This document shows, piece after piece, positions 3,001 to 52,918 of a stretch of DNA of 64,000 bases (position 1 is the first letter of the stretch; the number at the start of each line of letters is the position of its first letter). The stretch comes from Narcine bancroftii. Lineage: Eukaryota. The notes beneath the pieces are model-generated. The model searched no databases. It had not been told where the DNA came from and saw only the letters and a program-made list of their open reading frames with translations. The stretch covers positions 58,962,001-59,026,000 of the forward strand of contig NC_091476.1 in assembly GCF_036971445.1 (NCBI RefSeq), written 5' to 3'. The translations under genes were made by a program, and so were the position numbers.

Positions 3001-6000
3001 CAGTACTTCTGGCGGGGCCTCCCCGGTGCTCCTGGCGGTGCTTCCCCGATGCTCCTGGCCCGGCCTCCCCGATGCTCCTGGCCCGGACTCGCCGGTGCTC
3101 CTGGGCCGGCCTCGCCGCTGCTCCTGGCCCGGACTCGCAGCTGCTGCTGGCCCGGCCTCACCGGTGCTCCTGCCCGGCGTACCTGGTGGTCCTGGCCCGG
3201 ACTCCCCGGTGCTCCTGGCCCGGCCTCCCCGGTGCTCCTGCCCCGGCCTCCCCGGTGCTCCTGGACCGGCCTCCCCGGTGCTCCTGGCTCGGCCTCCCCA
3301 GCGCTCCAGGCCAGGCCTCCCCGTTGCTCCTGGCACGGCCTCCCCAGCACACCAGGTCCCGCCTCCCCTGTACTCCAGGCCCAGCCTCCCCAGTACTCCA
3401 GGCACTGCGTCCCCAGTTCTCCAGGCCCAGCCTCACCAGCACTCCTGGCCAAACTCCCCTCGTACTTCAGGCCAGTTACACTAATTCTCGAGGACCAGCC
3501 ACACCAGTTTTCTAGATCCAGTCTCATTAGTACTCCAGTATCAGCCTCAGCAGACCTCCAGGCCTTGCGCCTCTAGTCATCCAGGCTCACGCTCACCTTA
3601 TCTCCAGTCCAGGCCTCACCAGTACACCAGGACCAGCCGCAGCAGTGCTCCAGGCCTGGCCCCTCTAGTACTATATATCCAGCCTGAACAGTACTCCAAG
3701 CCAAGCATTACTAATACTCAGGAACAAACATCACAAGTACACCAGGCATAGATTCATTAGAACTTCAGGCACGACGTCAGCAGTCGTTCAGGCTCTGCAT
3801 CAGTAGTACACCAAGCCCAGTCCCAGCAGTACTCCTGGCGGGGCCTCCCCGGTGCTCCTGGCCCAGTCTCCACTGTGCTTCTGGCCCGGCCTCCCCGGTG
3901 CTCCAGGCCCAGCCTCCCCAGCGTGGCAGGCCCGGCCTCCCCAGCACTGCAGCCCACTCATCCCAGCACTCCAGGCCCAGCCGCCCCAGTACTCCAGGCC
4001 CGGCCACCCAAGCACTCCAGCCCCAGCCTCCCCAGTACTCCAGGCCCAGCCTCCCCAGAACTCCAGACCTAGCCTCACCAGTTCTCCAGGCCCAGCCTCC
4101 CCAGTACTCCAGGCTCAGCCTCCCCAGTCCACCAGGCCCATGCTCACCAGTACTCTAGGCCCAGCATCACCAGTACTCCAGGCCCAGCCTCACGATTACT
4201 CCAGGCCCAGCCTCGCCAGTACTCCAGGCCCAGCCTCACCAGTACTCCAGGGCCAGCCTCACCAGTTCTCTAGGGCCAGCCTCACAAGTACTCCAGGCCC
4301 AGCCTCACCAGTACTCCAGGCCCAGCCTCACCAGTACTCCAGGACCAGCCTCACCAGTTCTCCAGGCCGAACCTCACCAGTACTCCAGGCCTATTTAACT
4401 CGCACTCCATGTGAAGCCTCCCAAGCACTCCAGTCCCAGCCTCCCCAGCACTCCAGTCCCAGCCACCTCAGGACTCCAGGCCCAGCCTCCCCAGCACTCC
4501 AGGCCCAGCCTCCCCAGCACTCCAGGTCCCGACTACCCAGTACTCCAGGCCCAGCCTATCCAGTACTCCAGGTACAGCTTCCCCGGTACTCTTGGCACAG
4601 CCTCACCAGTAATCCAGTCCCAGCCTCACCAGTACTCCAGGCCCAGCCTCCCCTGTACTCCAGGCCCAGCCTCACCAGTACTCCAGGCCCGGCCTCACAT
4701 GAACTCATGGCCCGGCATCCCCAGTGCTCCTAGCGTGGCCTCGTCGGTGCTCCTGGCCCGGCCTCGCCGGTGCCCCTGGCCCGACCTCCCCGCTGCTCCT
4801 GGCCCGGCCTCGCCGGTGTTCCTGGCCCGGCCTCGCCGGTGCTCCTGGCCCGGCCTCGCGGGTGGTCCTGGCCCGTCCTCGCGGGTGCTCCTGGCCCGGC
4901 CTCCCCTGTGCTCCTGGCCCTGCCTCCCCGGTGCTCCTGGCCCGGCCTCCCCGGTGCTCCTGGCTCGGCCTCCCCAGCGCTCCAGGCCAGGCCTCCCCGG
5001 TGCTCCTGGCACGGCCTCCCCAGCACTCCAGGTCCCGCCTCCCCTGTACTCCAGGCCCAGCCTCCCCAGTTCTCCAGGCCCAGCCACACCAGTACTCCAA
5101 GCCCAGCCTCCCCAGTACTCCAGGCCCTGCGTCCCCAGTTCTCCAGGCCCAGCCTCACCAGCACTCCAGGCCAAACTCCCCTCGTACTTCAGGCCAGTTA
5201 CACTAATTCTCGAGGACCAGCCACACCAGTTTTCTAGATCCAGTCTCATTAGTACTCCAGTATCAGCCTCAGCAGACCTCCAGGCCTTGCGCCTCTAGTC
5301 ATCCAGGCTCACGCTCACCTGATCTCCAGTCCAGGCCTCACCAGTACACCAGGACCAGCCTCAGCAGTGTTCCAGGCCAGGCCCCTCTAGTACTATATAT
5401 CCAGCCTGACCAGAACTCCAGGCCAAGCATTACTAATACTCAGGAACAAACATCACAAGTACACCAGGCATAGATTCATTAGAACTTCAGGCACGACGTC
5501 AGCAGTCGTTCAGGCTCTGCATCAGTAGTACACCAAGCCCAGTCCCAGCAGTACTCCTGGCGGGGCCTCCCCGGTGCTCCTGGCCCAGTCTCCCCTGTGC
5601 TTCTGGCCCGGCCTCCCCGGTGCTCCAGGCCCGGCCTCCCCAGCGTGAAAGGCCCGGCCTCCCCAGCACTGCAGCCCACTCATCCCAGCACTCCAGGCCC
5701 AGCCTCCCCAGCACTTCAGGTCCAGCCTCCCCAGTACTCCAGGCCCGGCCACCCCAGCACTCCAGGCCCAGCCTCCCCAGTGCTCCAGGCCCAGCCTCCC
5801 CAGAACTCCAGACCTAGCCTCCCCAGTCCACCAGGCCAATGCTCACCAGTACTCTAGGCCCAGCATCACCAGTACTCCAGGCCCAGCCTCACCAGTACTC
5901 CAGGCCCAGCCTCGCCAGTACTCCAGGCCCAGCCTCACCAGCACTCCAGGCCCGGCCTCCCCAGCACATCAGGTCCAGCCTCTCCAGTACTCCAGGCCCA

Positions 6001-32300: not shown

Positions 32301-32737
32301 CTGGCCCGGCCTTGCCGGTGCTCCTGGCCTGGCCTCCCTGCTGCTCCTGGCCCGGCCTCGCGGGTGCTCCTGGCCCATCCTCGCGGGTGCTCCTGGCTCA
32401 TCCTCGCGGGTGCTCCTGGCCCGGCCTCCCCGGTGCTCCTGGCCCGGCCTCCCCGGTGCTCCTGGCCCAGCCTCCCTAGTACACCAGGCCCTGCGTCCCC
32501 AGTTCTCCAGGCCCAGCCTCACCAGTACTCCAGGCTAAACTCCACTAGTACTTCAGGCCCGGCGTCACTAGTGCTCCTGGACCAGCCTCACGAGTTCCCT
32601 AGGCCAAGCCACATTGGTACTCCAGTATCAGCCGCACCAGAACTCCAGACCTTGTCCTTCTAGTCATCCTGACTCACCCTCACCTGATCTCCAGTCCCAG
32701 ATACACCAGTACTCCACGCCCAGCCTCACCAGCATTC

Positions 32738-32742
32738 CAGGC
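32738..32742 (+). other. ERV target-site duplication, left copy (CAGGC; right copy 38308-38312)
   Basis: Uninterrupted paralogous sites (e.g. 27781) read AGCATTC-CAGGC-CCAGC. Here CAGGC occurs on both sides of the TG...CA element. Confidence 0.9.
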
Positions 32743-33077
32743 TGTGAGAGATGGGAAAATTGACCTAAAATTATGAACATGGAAGAAACTAAAGTTCATC
32801 AGTAAAATGGCTGAAACCAGTTCAAACAGGATAAGTTTGGGGCTTAGGATGCAGGAAAGCAGAGTCAGCACGATTAACATAAGAATCTTCTATCCTTTGT
32901 GACAAGACCATAGGACTAAGATAAGGAATGGTAAGGTACAATAGAATGTAGGAAGTTGAGGTAGTCTGGATCAGATAAGGGTCTCCTAGCCCTGGACAGA
33001 AGTACCAAGTCATACATTTCTAATTAGCTAACCATACACAGATTTATACATATGAAATTAGCCAACCCTAGATAGAA

Positions 33078-33084
33078 TGAGTCA
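33078..33084 (+). promoter_or_regulatory. AP-1 consensus site in U3 (also a YY1-like AAAATGGC at 32804 and several GATAAG motifs)
   Basis: Exact TGAGTCA about 200 bp upstream of the TATA box. Motif match only. Confidence 0.4.
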
Positions 33085-33286
33085 ACTCTGCATATCAAGA
33101 GACTGTAGCCCAGAGAATCAGGAAGGTGTGAATAAGGACAATGACATGATGGGGCACCCACAGGATACCCCCTGGTCCTCCAAGTGTACTGAAACTGCAC
33201 GTAGGCAGGAAGAATTACCTATGCCAAACCCATCCAGGGGGCAGAAGAATGTAAGGGGGAGGGCATTCTGATACTGAAATTGACTG

Positions 33287-33293
33287 TATAAAA
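33287..33293 (+). promoter_or_regulatory. LTR TATA box (3' LTR copy 38163-38169)
   Basis: TATAAAA at the expected U3 position, ~80 bp upstream of AATAAA. Confidence 0.8.
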
Positions 33294-33433
33294 GTTGGGT
33301 GAGCCCCAGTATGTGTGTGTATTCCCAGGGTAAGGGGAAGCACCCAACTTTGCATTGTTGTAGTAATAAATGTTCTTTGTTCTCAATTTTTGTCTCGAGC
33401 AATTTCTTTAAAGGTACTTTAATTCCTAACAAA

Positions 33434-33451
33434 TGGGGGCTCGTCCGGGAT
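33434..33451 (+). other. Primer-binding site for tRNA-Pro
   Basis: TGGGGGCTCGTCCGGGAT, an 18/18 match to the canonical MLV tRNA-Pro PBS, 2 nt after the LTR terminal CA. Confidence 0.95.
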
Positions 33452-33626
33452 CACACTCCCTCCACTGACAGAGTACCCCGACGACGAGAGTAGGTGCACC
33501 CCGGCTGATTCAGCTGGACTCACGGGCGACGGGTGGCTGGTCAGTGGAAGAAGCGAGTGATATCCGAGAAGAGGCATTGAGAACAAACGGCGGAAGGACG
33601 CGCGCTAGAGCAGTACTGCCAGAACT

Positions 33627-33635
33627 CGGTAAGAG
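33627..33635 (+). promoter_or_regulatory. Putative major splice donor in the ERV leader
   Basis: CG|GTAAGA about 27 nt upstream of the gag ATG, the usual retroviral position. Confidence 0.6.
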
Positions 33636-33655
33636 TATTTTACTTGTTCCTAAGT

Positions 33656-34753
33656 ATGGGAATAGCGGACAGTAGAGATGAGAGTCCTGACACAGGACGT
33701 GACCACCAGATAGCTACGTACAGCCCGCTTGGGATGATGTTATCTGAGTGGGGCACAGGAAAGACCCGCGGTAAAGACAAACTGACGACGGTCAGGTATT
33801 GTTGTAATGAATGGGTGGGATACCCGGTTAAAGGGAGCTCCGTGTACTGGCCAAAATTCGGATCCGAGGATGAATGGATGTGTGAAGCTTTGAACTTATG
33901 GCTCTATCAAAACCAGCCAATGTTGAGAGCAGGGAACATGCAGCCTGCTGGCTCAAGGGATCCATTGAACAGCTGGTTTTGAATGAGAAAGAATCCAGGG
34001 ATAAGAGAGAGGAGGAACCTCTTGTCCCTGAATCACAGGGTTGGGATGTGTTACATTCCCTCCCTCCACCCTATGTTCCTCCTATGCCGGCTCCTATCTT
34101 TCCTTCCCCTCCTATGACCTACCCTTCTGCACCTTCCCCACCTCCCCCACCACTAGAGAAGAGAGAAGAGAGCAGGAGTGGTATGATAACTTGCTCACAA
34201 AGCACTCGATTACCACCTCTGTTGGCAGGAGAGAGAGGTAACTTTAATTCAGAACAGCGTGAGACTCTTCAGGAAGAAAGGGCAGAACCCTTTGATTCAT
34301 TTCCCAGGGAGCAGGAACCCAGACCTAATAAGCTAGAAACCAATTGGATGAGACCACTGTGGGAAGTTCCCATGGGAGAGGGTCTCGGTTTCGTAAATGT
34401 GCCCCTGACCAGTACTGAAGTGTGTAACTTTAAGAAAGAACTGACCTCCCTGATAGAAGATCCCCAGGGATGTGCTGAACAGTTAGACCAATTTTTGGGA
34501 CCAAATATATATACAATATGGGGGTCTCGACATAGAATCCCCAGCAGGGGAACAATTGGTACTAACAGGTTTTGTTACCAACTCAGCCCCAGACATTAAG
34601 AGAAAATTACAAAAGACAGAAAATTGGCATGAGCAGGGAATAACCCAGCTTCTACAGATCACACAAAAAGCATTTGTCCAGACATCTGAGGATAAGCAGA
34701 AAGCAAAGGCTAACATTTTGATGCAAGCAGTTAAAGTAATAGTAGATGAGTAA
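33656..34753 (+). pseudogene. gag: Degenerate gag (MA, late domains, partial CA) in three frame segments
   Basis: MGIADS myristoylation motif. MA-like SPLG..W..YC..W...WPKFGS, then a frameshift at ~33915. PPPY (34063-34074) and PSAP (34123-34134) late domains. CA N-terminus PLWEVPMG..GFVNVPLTSTEV.NFKKEL..L.EDP..AEQLDQFLGP, then an out-of-frame deletion at ~34514. CA C-terminus FVTNSAPDIKRKLQK. No NC zinc knuckle. Confidence 0.9.
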
Positions 34754-34829
34754 CATGGAAAAGGCAGGGACTGTGTGCCAGCTCCTGAATGTTGGGAGAA
34801 GTGCAGGGAGTGGGAGAGTAGAGACCAGA

Positions 34830-36560
34830 GATAATTTCATAAATCACGACTTCCCACTTCAGTCACTGACCAATATTGATTAAAATTCATGCTAAAATTT
34901 AAATGTCATAAAGGATCATTTTTCAATACTGAAGAATTAGCGAATTTAACTACCAGTTAATTCCAATTTATGAAATAAATTGTATTCAAATGTGATTTTG
35001 CACAGGGACTACCTGAGAATAGTGATGTTATAACATTTGCAGGGAGAAATGTTTGCGCAAATAGGGTGAGTTCTATACATCTTAACTTTAAGTGTATGTG
35101 AGATAAAGAAAGGATCTGATGTGTAAAGTGGCTGGATCAGCCAGTTGAAGGGGGAGTGTGCATGTCCCTTTAAGTGCACTGTGGCACTTGAAATTGAGGC
35201 TTCAGGCTCTTGTCTTGCAGTTAGAGGTATGGAGCCCTATCAACACATTTAATACATTTCTTCTACACATTCAGCAGTCAAGGTCCGTGAGTTTAAAGAT
35301 CACCCACCTCTGGAGAATAAAGATACCTCTGGGGATTCCTATGGGGATTCCTATAAGTTTAATCATTCATTTCTCTGGTGCATTTTCCTCCGGAGTGAAA
35401 TTAATGCCTCAGCACAATTTCTCTGTATTGCCGCTGTTATTTAATTCATGATAACTTTCCCCCATTCATCAGGTTTATATTTAAATCCGGTAGTGCGGAA
35501 GTTACATTGTAAATAATCACGGAGGTAAATCCTGCGCAACTGGATTCAGCTTAATGGAGAAATAAACCTGCGAACTGGTCTATGGTGGTGTGTGAGTACT
35601 GCAATAGGTGGAATATGATTTAAATTGGTGGCATAGTTCAGAACAATTGGGTGCATAAGAATAATAATATCATTAAGAACTCACAGATCTTGTACCAGAT
35701 GCTATTCAGTACATCTTGACTTAAGGACTGGAGAAATTGGCATGTTAGAATGAGATTGGCATGGTACCAATATTTCTTGATTCAATAATGACTCCACAAG
35801 CTCCAGGATTCATGCAGCAGAACTTTTAAGTGGAATATAATAGAAACTAGCCTGTACTTAAATTATTGTGTGTGCAATCTTCATAAGAACATCTTTTAAC
35901 TTTTTTTGGTGCCTGTTTTACAGACTGTTTTAAATAAGGCCAGCTCCTGTGAGCTGTGGCACAAGGCATTTTACTTAAGGCAGAACTAAAGGTTGAATAT
36001 GTTTCAAGTTCTCTTGCAGGGGCTCTTGTGCTGCAATGTCTGTTATGTACTCACTCTAACAAATTGGAGGGTTGTGCCCCATACAGACAAGCAGCTCCAA
36101 CTGCATTTTAATAAGGTCTAACATATTCAAAACCCATGCAAATATGGTTTGTGTTTCATTTTACAATTTTTACACTAACACAAAGGAAAGTCACAGATTG
36201 TTACAAAGTGCCGTAATTTAACATTTTTTTTCGTTTCTTTAATGGTTTATTCAGTTATTGTTGTATTTTACTTGTCTTTTGATTATTCAGTTATTGTTGT
36301 ATTTTATTGCAGTTTTCAATGAGCTTTACATTTATTGTGTTTTATTCAGTTCTTATTGTATTTTATTGCAGTTTTCAATGAGCTTTACATTTATTGTGTT
36401 TTATTCAGTTCTTATTGTATTTTATTGCAGTTTTCAATGAGCTTTACATTTATTGTGCTTTATTCAGTTCTTATTGTATTTTAATGCTGTTTTTAATGAG
36501 CTTTACATGTATTGTTCATTGTTGTTTACTAATTTCTTTGGAATATTGTTCGTTAATGTT
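34830..36560. other. AT-rich internal sequence with no recognisable retroviral similarity (possible captured host DNA)
   Basis: Abrupt change from gag-like to AT-rich sequence. No ORF over 100 aa and no pro/RT/IN motifs seen. Confidence 0.55.
36247..36515. repeat. T-rich 59-bp minisatellite (~3.7 copies plus a degenerate lead-in) inside the ERV
   Basis: Unit TTGTATTTTATTGCAGTTTTCAATGAGCTTTACATTTATTGTGTTTTATTCAGTTCTTA with a 59-bp period. Confidence 0.9.
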
Positions 36561-36842
36561 TTAAGCCCCCCTGGAATAGGGGCAGCAGAGGTTACAATTC
36601 AGCTCCTTTAGAATGTAGACAGGGCATAGATTTAATGTATAATCATAATGGGATATAAGGGATCCCAATACGGACCAGGGGAATTAAACAGCTTTAGTGG
36701 AGTACATCTAATTTGTATCATAGCCTACACAGGTATTAAAGACAGGAGTTTTGAAGCGATAGCACAAAGGACATGGTGGGACAAAGACAGACAGAATGGT
36801 AGTCAGCATTGTACATGTAACAGAGAGAGAGAGAGTTAATAC

Positions 36843-36928
36843 ATATGCTAATGTACACAGACAGGCTGCAACTCACAAGTTCAATGATATATATGCTAAT
36901 GTTAGCAGACAAGCTGCAACACACAGTT
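36843..36928. repeat. Imperfect ~38-bp direct repeat (48-bp spacing) starting ATATGCTAATGT
   Basis: ATATGCTAATGTACACAGACAGGCTGCAACTCACA versus ATATGCTAATGTTAGCAGACAAGCTGCAACACACA. Confidence 0.75.
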
Positions 36929-37124
36929 AAATCACAAGAAACAATCCCCCCCCTGCTTGGTCACTTTTCATCACCCCATGAAAGGGAGCACCAGTTTCCA
37001 ACAACGTGAGCTGCTTGACACTTTAATATCAGGCTCCAAACAGCCTTCGGAGATCGGTGGCCCTAGGGTTCGGGGCTGAAGAGGACATCAGATACGAGCC
37101 ACAATCAAACGGAACCGCCTGACT

Positions 37125-37247
37125 ACTGCTACTCGTTCGCTGCTGAAGGCAGCGCTTCTCATAGACTGCTACTCGTTCGCTGCTGAAGGCAGCGCTTCTC
37201 ATAGACTGCTACTTGTTCGCTGCTGAAGGCAGCGCCTCTCACAGACT
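37125..37247 (+). repeat. 3 x 40-bp tandem repeat, each copy with a CGCTGC-TGAAG-GCAGCG stem-loop
   Basis: Unit ACTGCTACTCGTTCGCTGCTGAAGGCAGCGCTTCTCATAG with a 40-bp period. Confidence 0.92.
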
Positions 37248-37601
37248 TCGTCGGGACAACACTTACAAAGGTCGTGTGCTTCAAAGACACTGCTTCAATA
37301 TTTCAACGTATGGGATGGACTAGACTCTTTACTGAGAACTGGAGCCTGATACTCCAAACCCTAATAAGCAGCTGGACTCACTCCCCTGACCTTCATGGTG
37401 CTCCCCTACCTAAAGACTTTACACAGACATTACAATTCGGTTATTGACCAGCTGGGTAAAACTACACCTTACACTTGAAAGATCAGTGTTACTGATCTAA
37501 AAGAAAAGTGAGGAGAGGGGGGGGGGGGGATCAGTCACACTGACACTAGTAACCAAAGATCAGTAACACTGATCATGGTGAAAGATCAGTATTACTGATC
37601 T

Positions 37602-37617
37602 AAAAGAAAAGTGAGGA
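37602..37617 (+). other. Polypurine tract (plus-strand primer); second copy at 37499-37514
   Basis: AAAAGAAAAGTGAGGA immediately upstream of the 3' LTR. Confidence 0.85.
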
Positions 37618-37618
37618 T

Positions 37619-38307
37619 TGTGAGAGATGGGAAAATTGACCTAAAATTATGAACATGGAAGAAACTAAAGTTCATCAGTAAAATGGCTGAAACCAGTTCA
37701 AACAGGATAAGTTTGGGGCTTAGGATGCAGGAAAGCAGAGTCAGCACGATTAACATAAGAATCTTCTATCCTTTGTGACAAGACCATAGGACTAAGATAA
37801 GGAATGGTAAGGTACAATAGAATGTAGGAAGTTGAGGTAGTCTGGATCAGATAAGGGTCTCCTAGCCCTGGACAGAAGTACCAAGTCATACATTTCTAAT
37901 TAGCTAACCATACACAGATTTATACATATGAAATTAGCCAACCCTAGATAGAATGAGTCAACTCTGCATATCAAGAGACTGTAGCCCAGAGAATCAGGAA
38001 GGTGTGAATAAGGACAATGACATGATGGGGCACCCACAGGATACCCCCTGGTCCTCCAAGTGTACTGAAACTGCACGTAGGCAGGAAGAATTACCTATGC
38101 CAAACCCATCCAGGGGGCAGAAGAATGTAAGGGGGAGGGCATTCTGATACTGAAATTGACTGTATAAAAGTTGGGTGAGCCCCAGTATGTGTGTGTATTC
38201 CCAGGGTAAGGGGAAGCACCCAACTTTGCATTGTTGTAGTAATAAATGTTCTTTGTTCTCAATTTTTGTCTCGAGCAATTTCTTTAAAGGTACTTTAATT
38301 CCTAACA
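37619..38307 (+). repeat. 3' LTR (689 bp)
   Basis: Same sequence as 32743-33431. Spurious ORFs inside the two LTRs translate identically at offset 4876. Confidence 0.97.
38241..38246 (+). terminator. LTR polyadenylation signal (5' LTR copy 33365-33370)
   Basis: AATAAA followed by T/GT-rich downstream sequence. Confidence 0.75.
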
Positions 38308-39689
38308 CAGGCCCAGCATCAATAGTACTCCAGACCGTCTCACTAGTACTCCAGGCCCAGTCTCACTAGTATTCCAGGCCTATTTCACTCGCACTACATA
38401 TGAAGCCTCACCAGAACTCCAGGCCCAGCTTCACTAGTACTTCATACCCAGCATCAAGAGCAATCCAGGCCATTCTCACTAGTTCCCAGGCCCAGCCTCA
38501 CCAGTACTCCAGGCCAAGCTCCACTGTCCTTCAGGCCACGCTTCACCAGTACTCTAGTCCCAGCTCCCCTCATACTTCTGGCCAGCTACACTAAAATTCC
38601 AGGACTCGCCACACCAGTTTTCTAGACCCAGCTTCATTAGTACTCCAGTATCAGCCTCAGCAGAACTCCAGGCCTTTCCCCTCTAGTCATCCAGGCTCAC
38701 GCTCACCTGATCTCCAGTCCCAGCTTCACCAGTACACGTGACCCAGCCTCATTAGTGCTCCAGGCCTGGCCACTCTAGTACTATACGTCCAGCCTGACCA
38801 GTACTCAAGGCGCAGCATTACAAATCCTCCAGAACAAACATCAAAAGTACACTAGGCATAGATTCATTAGATCTTCAGGCACGGCGTCAGCAGTAGTCCA
38901 GGCTCTGCATAAGTAGTACACCAAGCCCAGTCCCACGAGTACTCCTGGTGAGGCCTCCCCGGTGCTCCTGGCATGGCCTCGCCGGTGCTCCTGGCCCGGC
39001 CTCCCCGGTGCCCCTGGCCCGGCCTCCCCGGTGCCCCTGGCCCGGCCTCCCCGGTGCTCCTGGCCCGGCCTCCACGTTTCTCCTGGCCCGGCCTCTACGG
39101 TGCTACTGGCCCGGCCTCCCCGGTGCTCCTGGCCCGGCCTCCACGGTGCTCCTGGCCCGGCCTCCCCGGTGCTCCTGGTTCGGCCTCCCTGGTACTCCTG
39201 GCCCAACCTCCCCAGCACTTCAGGACCAGTCTCCCCAGTACTCCAGGCCCAGCCACCCCAGTATTCCAGGCCCAGCCTCACCAGTACTACAGGCCCAGCC
39301 TTCCCAGTACTCCAGGTCCAGCCTCACCAGAACTCCTGGCCCAGCTTCACCAGTACTCCAGTACTCCAGGCCCAGCCTCAACAATAATCCAAGCCCAGCC
39401 TCACCAGAACTCCCGCGCGAGCCTCACCAGTACTCCAGGCCCAGCCATCACCAGTACTTCAGGTCCAGCCTCACCAGTAATCCAGGACCAGCCTCAGCAG
39501 TACTCCAGGACAAACCTCACCAGTACTCCAGGCCCAGCCTCACCAATACTCAAGGCCCAGCCTCCCCAGTATTACAGACGCAGCCTCACAAGTACTCCAG
39601 TCCCAGCCTCACCAGTAGTCCTGGCCCAGCCTCACCAGTAGTCCAGGCGCAGCCTCCACAGGACTCCAGGCCCAGGGTCACCAGCACTC

Positions 39690-51131: not shown

Positions 51132-51143
51132 AGCCTCACCATT
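51132..51143 (+). other. LINE target-site duplication AGCCTCACCATT, left copy (right copy 52919-52930)
   Basis: Identical 12-mer on both flanks. Empty paralogous sites read AGCCTCACCATTACTCC (e.g. ~40780, ~55440). Confidence 0.9.
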
Positions 51144-52918
51144 TTTTTCTTTGGCTTGGCTTCGCGGACGAAGATTTATGGAGGGGGTAAAAAGTCCACG
51201 TCAGCTGCAGGCTCGTTTGTGGCTGACCAGTCCGATGCGGGACAGGCAGACACGATTGCAGCGGTTGCAAGGGAAAATTGGTTGGTTGGGGTTGGGTGTT
51301 GGGTTTTTCCTCCTTTGCCTTTTGTCAGTGAGGTGGGCTCTGCGGTCTTCTTCAAAGGAGGCTGCTGCCTGCCAAACTGTGAGGCGCCAAGATGCACGGT
51401 TTGAGGCGTTATCAGCCCACTGGCGGTGGTCAATGTGGCAGGCACCAAGAGATTTCTTTAGGCAGTCCTTGTACCTTTTCTTTGGTGCACCTCTGTCACG
51501 GTGGCCAGTGGAGAGCTCGCCATATAATACGATCTTGGGAAGGCGATGGTCCTCCATTCTGGAGACGTGACCCATCCAGCGCAGCTGGATCTTCAGCAGC
51601 GTTGACGCGATGCTGTCGACCTCTGCCATCTCGAGTACCTCGACGTTAGGGGTGTGAGCGCTCCAATGGATGTTGAGGATGGAGCGGAGACAACGCTGGT
51701 GGAAGCGTTCTAGGAGCCGTAGGTGGTGCCGGTAGAGGACCCATGATTCGGAGCCGAACAGGAGTGTGGGTATGACAACGGCTCTGTATACGCTTATCTT
51801 TGTGAGGTTTTTCAGTTGGTTGTTTTTCCAGACTCTTTTGTGTAGTCTTCCAAAGGCGCTATTTGCCTTGGCGAGTCTGTTGTCTATCTCATTGTTGATC
51901 CTTGCATCTGATGAAATGGTGCAGCCGAGATAGGTAAACTGGTTGACCGTTTTGAGTTTTGTGTGCCCGATGGAGATGTGGGGGGGCTGGTAGTCATGGT
52001 GGGGAGCTGGCTGATGGAGGACCTCAGTTTTCTTCAGGCTGACTTCCAGGCCAAACATTTTGGCAGTTTCCGCAAAGCAGGACGTCAAGCGCTGAAGAGC
52101 TGGCTCTGAATGGGCAACTAAAGCGGCATCATCTGCAAAGAGTAGTTCACGGACAAGTTTCTCTTGTGTCTTGGTGTGAGCTTGCAGGCGCCTCAGATTG
52201 AAGAGACTGCCATCCGTGCGGTACCGGATGTAAACAGCGTCTTCATTGTTGGGGTCTTTCATGGCTTGGTTCAGCATCATGCTGAAGAAGATTGAAAAGA
52301 GGGTTGGTGCGAGAACACAGCCTTGCTTCACGCCATTGTTAATGGAGAAGGGTTCAGAGAGCTCATTGCTGTATCTGACCCGACCTTGTTGGTTTTCGTG
52401 CAGTTGGATAATCATGTTGAGGAACTTTGGGGGACATCCGATGCGCCCTAGTATTTGCCAAAGCCCTTTCCTGCTCACGGTGTCGAAGGCTTTGGTGAGG
52501 TCAACAAAGGTGATGTAGAGTCCTTTGTTTTGTTCTCTGCACTTTTCTTGGAGCTGTCTGAGGGCAAAGACCATGTCAGTGGTTCCTCTGTTTGCGCGAA
52601 AGCCGCACTGTGATTCTGGGAGAATATTCTCAGCGACACTAGGTATTATTCTATTTAGTAGAATCCTAGCGAAGATTTTGCCTGCAATGGAGAGCAACGT
52701 GATTCCCCTGTAGTTTGAGCAGTCTGATTTCTCGCCTTTGTTTTTGTACAGGGTGATGATGGTGGCATCACGAAGATCCTGAGGCAGTTTACCTTGGTCC
52801 CAACAAAGCTTGAAAAACTCATGCAGTTTGGCATGCAGAGTTTTGCCGCCAGCCTCCCAGACTTCTGGGGGGGATTCCATCCATACCTGCTGCTTTGCCA
52901 CTTTTCAGTTGTTCGATT
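51144..52918 (-). mobile_element. 5'-truncated RTE-clade (BovB-like) non-LTR retrotransposon, 1.78 kb
   Basis: RT ORF, ~55-nt 3' UTR ending GCCAAGCCAAAGAAAAA, 12-bp TSD, and no endonuclease domain. Confidence 0.93.
51201..52917 (-). pseudogene. Truncated LINE ORF: reverse transcriptase plus C-terminal Cys/His motif
   Basis: Motifs YRGITLLS, QCGFR, FVDLTKAFD, GVKQGCVLAP, LFADD and YLG, with C-terminal CNRC..SHKRAC. Open for ~555 codons. The upstream IEQLKSGKAAGMDGIP segment is out of frame by one base at the G7 run 52867-52873. Confidence 0.92.

Follow-up and report, generated by a model that had tools for sequence, protein, structure and literature searches.

We analysed a 64,000-nt stretch of genomic DNA (the window) in which a GC-rich 23-bp satellite runs from end to end (1-64000) with two inserts, a ~5.6 kb provirus at 32743-38307 and a fragment of an RTE-type long interspersed nuclear element (LINE). 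The provirus, a defective endogenous retrovirus (ERV) hereafter called the element, is the subject of this report. A preliminary description, made from the letters of the window, had presented it as a very recent insertion of an already defective retrovirus with non-viral cargo, mobilised by a helper that should exist in the genome.

A defective provirus in a satellite array

The long terminal repeats (LTRs) of the element occupy 32743..33431 and 37619..38307 on the plus strand; both have TG...CA ends, and the 5' copy has TATAAA at 33287 and AATAAA at 33365. They had been judged identical by eye, and exact comparison of the pair indeed gave 0 mismatches over 689 bp. Directly outside them lie two copies of a 5-bp target site duplication, CAGGC (32738..32742 and 38308..38312, plus strand). 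Because such a duplication could be faked by the satellite, we examined empty paralogous units. Six satellite units match the left 150 bases; in five of them the right flank adjoins, the two flanks overlapping by 5 bases, and the insert is missing. The nearest empty unit differs at 2 of 150 bases on either side. This is a clean integration with a 5-bp target duplication, in one satellite unit only.

Two bases past the 5' LTR begins a primer binding site (PBS) for tRNA-Pro of the murine leukaemia virus (MLV) type (33434..33451, plus strand). This 18-base site matches once within the window, with 0.01 matches expected by chance, and is letter for letter the MLV PBS-Pro probe printed in PMC4587795. 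It is followed by a CpG-rich leader (33452..33655, plus strand; observed/expected ratio 0.96), presumed from its position to be the packaging region, whose RNA fold is no better than that of shuffled sequences (z -0.62). The 3' end of the internal region (37476..37617, plus strand) folds strongly (z -3.79). It contains a 39-bp sequence present twice (at 37476-37514 and at 37579-37617), a run of G enclosed by an 18-bp stem, and a purine tract (37602-37616) adjoining the LTR. The purine tract occurs in two copies, the upstream one entering a long G tract within the 18-bp stem and the downstream one abutting the LTR. Target duplication, primer site and purine tract are thus all intact, as had been proposed.

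Only remnants of gag are left, in three pieces and two frames, with similarity to ray and bird gag proteins of class I. The first (33656..33925, plus strand) encodes matrix and ends at a frameshift near 33915. The second (33913..34515, plus strand) covers a proline-rich region and the N-terminal part of capsid, and ends at a deletion of ~110 codons at 34515, where the alignment passes from residue 279 to 391 of protein P0001 and from residue 276 to 387 of P0075. The third (34514..34753, plus strand) holds the C-terminal part of capsid, matches Pfam Gag_p30 (28.3 bits, cut-off 27.4) and ends in a stop codon at 34751-34753, ahead of nucleocapsid. Frameshift, deletion and truncation, all three named in the preliminary description, are thereby placed. 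The best match of the third piece is P0075, annotated in Narcine bancroftii (93% over 28 residues; 46-50% for the other pieces), a protein of the same gag type in which the capsid region deleted in the element is whole.

No pol or env was found on the sense strand with Pfam, PDB, 74 retroviral proteins or two related loci. The claimed absence of these genes holds for that strand; the antisense strand retains a decayed piece of reverse transcriptase (RT) at 35594-35833. None of gag, pol and env is intact, so the element is non-autonomous, and since it encodes neither RT nor integrase, its mobilisation in trans follows, in agreement with the preliminary description. Paired TG...CA LTRs with a target duplication, a tRNA primer site with a purine tract and a Gag_p30-type capsid identify it as a class I ERV, an assignment that draws on gag and the RTs of its relatives, as the element has no sense pol of its own.

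The filler and its antisense reverse transcriptase fossil

In place of pro, pol and env stands ~2.7 kb of partly AT-rich filler (34754..37475), common to sibling copies as far as 36280. On its minus strand, 35594..35833 carries a decayed RT fragment from the fingers region, apparently of an epsilon-like shark/ray ERV lineage. The fragment matches MLV RT with an E-value of 8.5e-7, and against the 74 retroviral proteins it reached 69.7 bits, with 22.3 for the best shuffle. It has 3 stops per 80 aligned codons and zero CpG, indicative of decay far beyond that of gag. Among 1.84 billion proteins 50 matched it, the top three coming from Mustelus, Amblyraja and Mobula (49-57% identical). In a tree of 90 columns and 53 rows, the remainder of 58 segments with 8 near-duplicate wrasse proteins marked for removal, the fragment falls together with these three proteins and two unnamed rows (98/92), apart from P0005, the sole row tied to a gag of the element's type.

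The fragment sits about where pol belongs, the tree is short and its own branch long, and it might accordingly be taken for a decayed pol of the element itself that was inverted where it stood, with nothing foreign captured. We regard this as very improbable: the fragment is 57% identical to epsilon-like shark RT and only 37% to P0005 (scores of 178 against P0016 and 88 against P0005), and compared with the RT of locus L002, which follows a gag of the element's type, it stays within shuffles (24.4 bits, best shuffle 27.2).

The filler had been described as non-viral cargo. For 240 bp this does not stand, these being antisense fossil pol; the remaining ~2.5 kb has no detectable protein homology. 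In Pfam, PDB and Rfam the RT piece alone found matches, with no captured host coding sequence or structured RNA (Rfam 0 matches; no tRNA genes). Attempts to extend the RT fragment past 35594-35833 were rejected, as motifs seen by eye failed shuffle controls: downstream, none of five queries stood clearly above 60 shuffles (for the best, 2 of the 60 scored equally high), while upstream one of four did (P0018, 37 vs 26.8). Three further filler regions gave no match above shuffles, and sense-strand RNase H-like matches at 37002-37163 were weak and within the shuffle range. The filler also contains a T-rich 59-bp tandem repeat (3.9 copies, 36283..36515) and a 40-bp tandem repeat (3.1 copies, 37125..37247), the latter inside a CpG-rich stretch (37001-37260, observed/expected 0.88) that resembles the leader in composition. 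The repeat GGGGATTCC at 35322-35354 resembles the NF-kB site motif, and we claim nothing for it. In P0019, a relative of the best RT matches, an insert separates protease from RT, and we take it to be the phosphodiesterase-like domain of epsilon-like fish ERVs. A phosphodiesterase-like domain is mentioned in PMC4977317.

Sibling copies and the age of the insertion

With the element minus its second LTR as query, we counted the share of its words in public sequencing runs. Words were present in 11 of 15 listed runs (5 studies, 4 coded organisms), with a highest share of 0.73 and 0.58 in X10. No positive run was listed as RNA, which has no bearing on expression. Contigs of four of the 11 positive runs (X1, X4, X8 and X11) were aligned to 32683-36280 in 30 bins. 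Over these 3.6 kb, 1517 contigs aligned from X1, 3905 from X4, 786 from X8 and 17 from X11; the first three runs cover 30/30 bins and X11 23/30, its 7 uncovered bins, at a depth of 2-5, not being taken as absence. The alignments show 124 variable places, many of them of intermediate share (40 shown). Uniqueness of the copy had been named as an observation that would overturn the preliminary description; the copy is not unique, contigs of all four runs, taken from other animals, covering LTR, gag and filler with many alleles.

The join between the gag stop and the filler is bridged in two runs, by record 4 of X1 (study P1; 34627-34835, 0 differences) and by record 14 of X11 (study P5; 34623-34939, 9 differences in 317). 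Since contigs from two studies carry this join, truncation and filler are older than the insertion in the window, and the element was defective before it integrated, as had been supposed. The further expectation that copies share the same lesions was borne out for the gag truncation and the filler and not for the matrix frameshift, where the siblings do not have the same length as the window, whose letter at 33917 is absent from X1, X4 and X8; this lesion is not family-wide. At the capsid deletion, some contigs diverge from the window exactly at its edge: seven in X4 behind 34514, and record 3 of X1 with 93 unaligned letters before 34514 and 22 differences in 218 (~90% identity) at a depth of 15.9. 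Judged by their sequence, such contigs would fit low-copy relatives without the deletion. Most copies probably carry it, given that 0-1% of aligned contigs in X1, X4 and X8 continue differently there.

Several contigs differ from the window in structure. Contigs of X1, X8 and X11 depart from the LTR near its 3' end (33401-33429), some reaching the primer site from different sequence, possibly an LTR subfamily that is related but ends in another U5, and maybe from the helper side. The main X8 contig and one of X1 take another continuation at 36193-36203, just before the 59-bp repeat; here the window copy is structurally unlike many siblings. One X1 variant skips 175 bases at 35447-35623. In one low-depth X4 contig the LTR end (33431) is joined to the LTR start (32741) over a few bases, either tandem LTRs or a circle junction, and one X8 contig has the same purine tract/LTR junction as the window.

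Word depths of single filler or gag contigs were 1107-1965 in X1, 4526-4714 in X4 and 265-629 in X8, and those of rare-variant contigs of the same runs 11-23. If the runs are DNA, this ~15-400-fold excess of the main contigs would point to a copy number in the tens to hundreds, depth being no direct measure of it. A single locus or a few loci, strongly expressed or segmentally amplified, could produce high depth without many retroviral integrations: the aligned runs have no recorded library type, X1 is guessed to be RNA, and for two samples there are sister runs without the sequence. We nevertheless find this account improbable, because up to 59 contigs share a variant at one place, because the copies vary in structure (the X1 skip, the departure of X1 and X8 from the window beyond 36193, and the varied sequence behind the LTR ends), and because the insert occupies one of six paralogous satellite units and so was not amplified with the array here.

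At the epaulette shark rate of 7e-10 per base per generation, given in PMC10587355, 0 differences in 689 bp place the age of the insertion below 3.1 million generations with 95% confidence (1.5-15.5 million across that paper's interval), and at the 2.2e-10 per year assumed in PMC4422223 the bound is 9.9 million years. As the host is likely a slow-clock elasmobranch, the claim of a very recent insertion has no support in absolute terms, identical LTRs allowing ~3 million generations at shark rates. Relative to its family the copy is young. It lies up to ~1% from all positive runs (an upper estimate, as structural differences remove words too), and ~14 LTR differences would be expected had that ~1% accrued in place; either it was copied from an already diverged parent or it comes from a population outside the positive runs.

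That same divergence might instead point to an older insertion in a real, long-dead family, with LTRs made identical by gene conversion, assembly or polishing. The surrounding satellite array is rich in recombination substrates, no run exceeds 0.73 of the words (~1% divergence if all were point changes), and the window carries the decayed CpG form at 4 of 40 listed places, the reverse being seen at 1. We consider such homogenisation unlikely. It would have had to embrace the whole 689 bp (with those ~14 differences expected, the probability of none is ~1e-6), neighbouring satellite units at 95-98.7% identity stay distinct in the same assembly, and the window's rarer LTR letters are minority alleles in X1 and X4, which fits a subfamily.

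Helper, host and known systems

From these observations we conclude, with good confidence, that the element belongs to a family of non-autonomous class I ERVs with many copies in a ray or shark, and that a related helper retrovirus likely supplied the proteins that copied and integrated it. In the cycle we propose, the 5' LTR would drive the RNA, which helper Gag would package through the leader; reverse transcription would be primed by tRNA-Pro, and integration would occur with a 5-bp stagger. The filler would have been acquired once, in an ancestor, via recombination with a host RNA running backwards across an old epsilon-like ERV, and later breaks may have arisen in sub-branches, being cost-free when proteins come in trans.

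Several points weigh against this conclusion. An intact gag-pol-env copy with the element's LTR was not found, and the closest gag is 46-50% identical (matrix, N-terminal capsid). A sibling provirus was never seen whole: none of the listed contigs spans the aligned stretch, none bridges the capsid deletion, and the comparison stops at 36280, with the 3' filler (36281-37618) outside it. Run types are guessed, and if the runs are RNA, depth is expression. Four runs from the X8 and X10 samples have 0.00 of the words, odd for a high-copy family, and the presence in organisms B and C is weakened in that labels may reflect mixed material or RNA. The RT tree is short at 90 columns, with a long branch for the fragment (1.23) and a bootstrap not fully settled, and the host clade is read from nearest relatives only.

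A bolder version would have a gamma-like retrovirus that continues to replicate in a ray's germ line, parasitised by a large and still inserting chimeric satellite family with a captured antisense epsilon-like ERV fossil, a recKoRV-type process in a cartilaginous fish. We hold this to be a tentative possibility at best. The preliminary description had argued that an active or recently active helper should exist; its signs are indirect, namely gag relatives without the capsid deletion, and no intact one was found. Helper searches yielded no close gag; the two loci that they did return are distant and share no DNA similarity with the element. In L001 (1-7025), a distant relative, a second gag is preceded by pol and further open frames, which suggests tandem proviruses. 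The same primer site, related LTR ends and 5-bp duplications offer a handle for the search.

The nearest relatives of the gag end, the RT fossil and the LINE are all elasmobranch, and by these similarities the host is likely a ray. The LINE itself (51141-52918, minus strand) lies 5'-truncated in the satellite; its target duplication measures 9 bp, and its RT frame stays free of stops over 567 codons. Identity is 90% with a Narcine protein and 73-79% with RTEs of marine invertebrates. RTE elements move between hosts, and horizontal transfer of this family is possible on that similarity. The satellite is strongly strand-skewed, and its higher-order units, ~1.9-2.5 kb long, are 92-96% identical (window 1-64000).

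The element likely represents a known strategy in a little-studied host, that of VL30- or recKoRV-like non-autonomous ERV families. The mechanism is textbook, and identical LTRs date loosely in slow-clock hosts. The suggestion of an undescribed system is therefore not upheld, the strategy being already described for VL30, recKoRV and cattle D-type ERVK. Our literature search, with the repeat libraries Repbase and Dfam (which may include it) outside its scope, turned up no account of a shark or ray family of this kind.

Mouse VL30 (PMC4859993) has identical LTRs in 42 of 86 copies, PBS-Pro in 17 of 86 and mostly PBS-Gly, with 4-bp duplications. The element shares with it a size class of 4-6.3 kb, an intact series of LTR, PBS and purine tract, no intact gag, pol or env, and mobilisation in trans, a likeness by description and not by compared sequences. 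Unlike VL30, whose duplications are of 4 bp and whose helper is known to be MLV, it has a 5-bp duplication; as VL30 and koala retrovirus (KoRV) both make 4 bp, this sets it apart from gammaretroviruses proper and from the VL30 family itself.

In recKoRV of the koala, a younger retrovirus contributed the LTR, leader and truncated gag, to which sequence of an older endogenous retroelement is joined, and recKoRV spread to many loci without RT or integrase (PMC5696478). The element resembles it in this make-up as far as 240 bp of its filler go. The parent virus of recKoRV is known, its duplications are of 4 bp, and besides a 3' env stub it carries 4.9 kb of PhER, LTR included (PMC5696478). In contrast, only 240 bp of the element's filler is recognisably retroviral, and antisense, and its parent was not found.

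The ERVK clade belongs to class II. Within it, the cattle D-type ERVK[2-1-LTR] includes, according to PMC10924933, non-autonomous copies that rely on autonomous ones and are able to dominate new insertions; its activity has been measured.

A class I gag lineage of rays and birds (P0075 of Narcine, P0002 of Hemitrygon, P0004 of Alca and P0005 of Hirundo) is related through matrix/capsid similarity and Gag_p30. Its members are just 39-50% identical over longer matches, so none is the direct helper. The elephant shark CmiERVs of PMC4422223 are also chondrichthyan and include two epsilon-like lineages, as the antisense RT appears to be; this likeness is again by description, and the CmiERVs are old (LTR divergence 2.4-3.3%) and defined by pol and env. 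In PMC10435555, 13 cartilaginous fishes were screened for intact young ERVs via RT homology and intact genes. On the criteria given there the element would fail, and such families are missing from counts of young ERVs. The ERV content of the elephant shark has been reported as ~0.007% (PMC4977317); if the family is as numerous as the contigs suggest, it would mean large retroviral activity in a lineage reported to be very low in ERVs.

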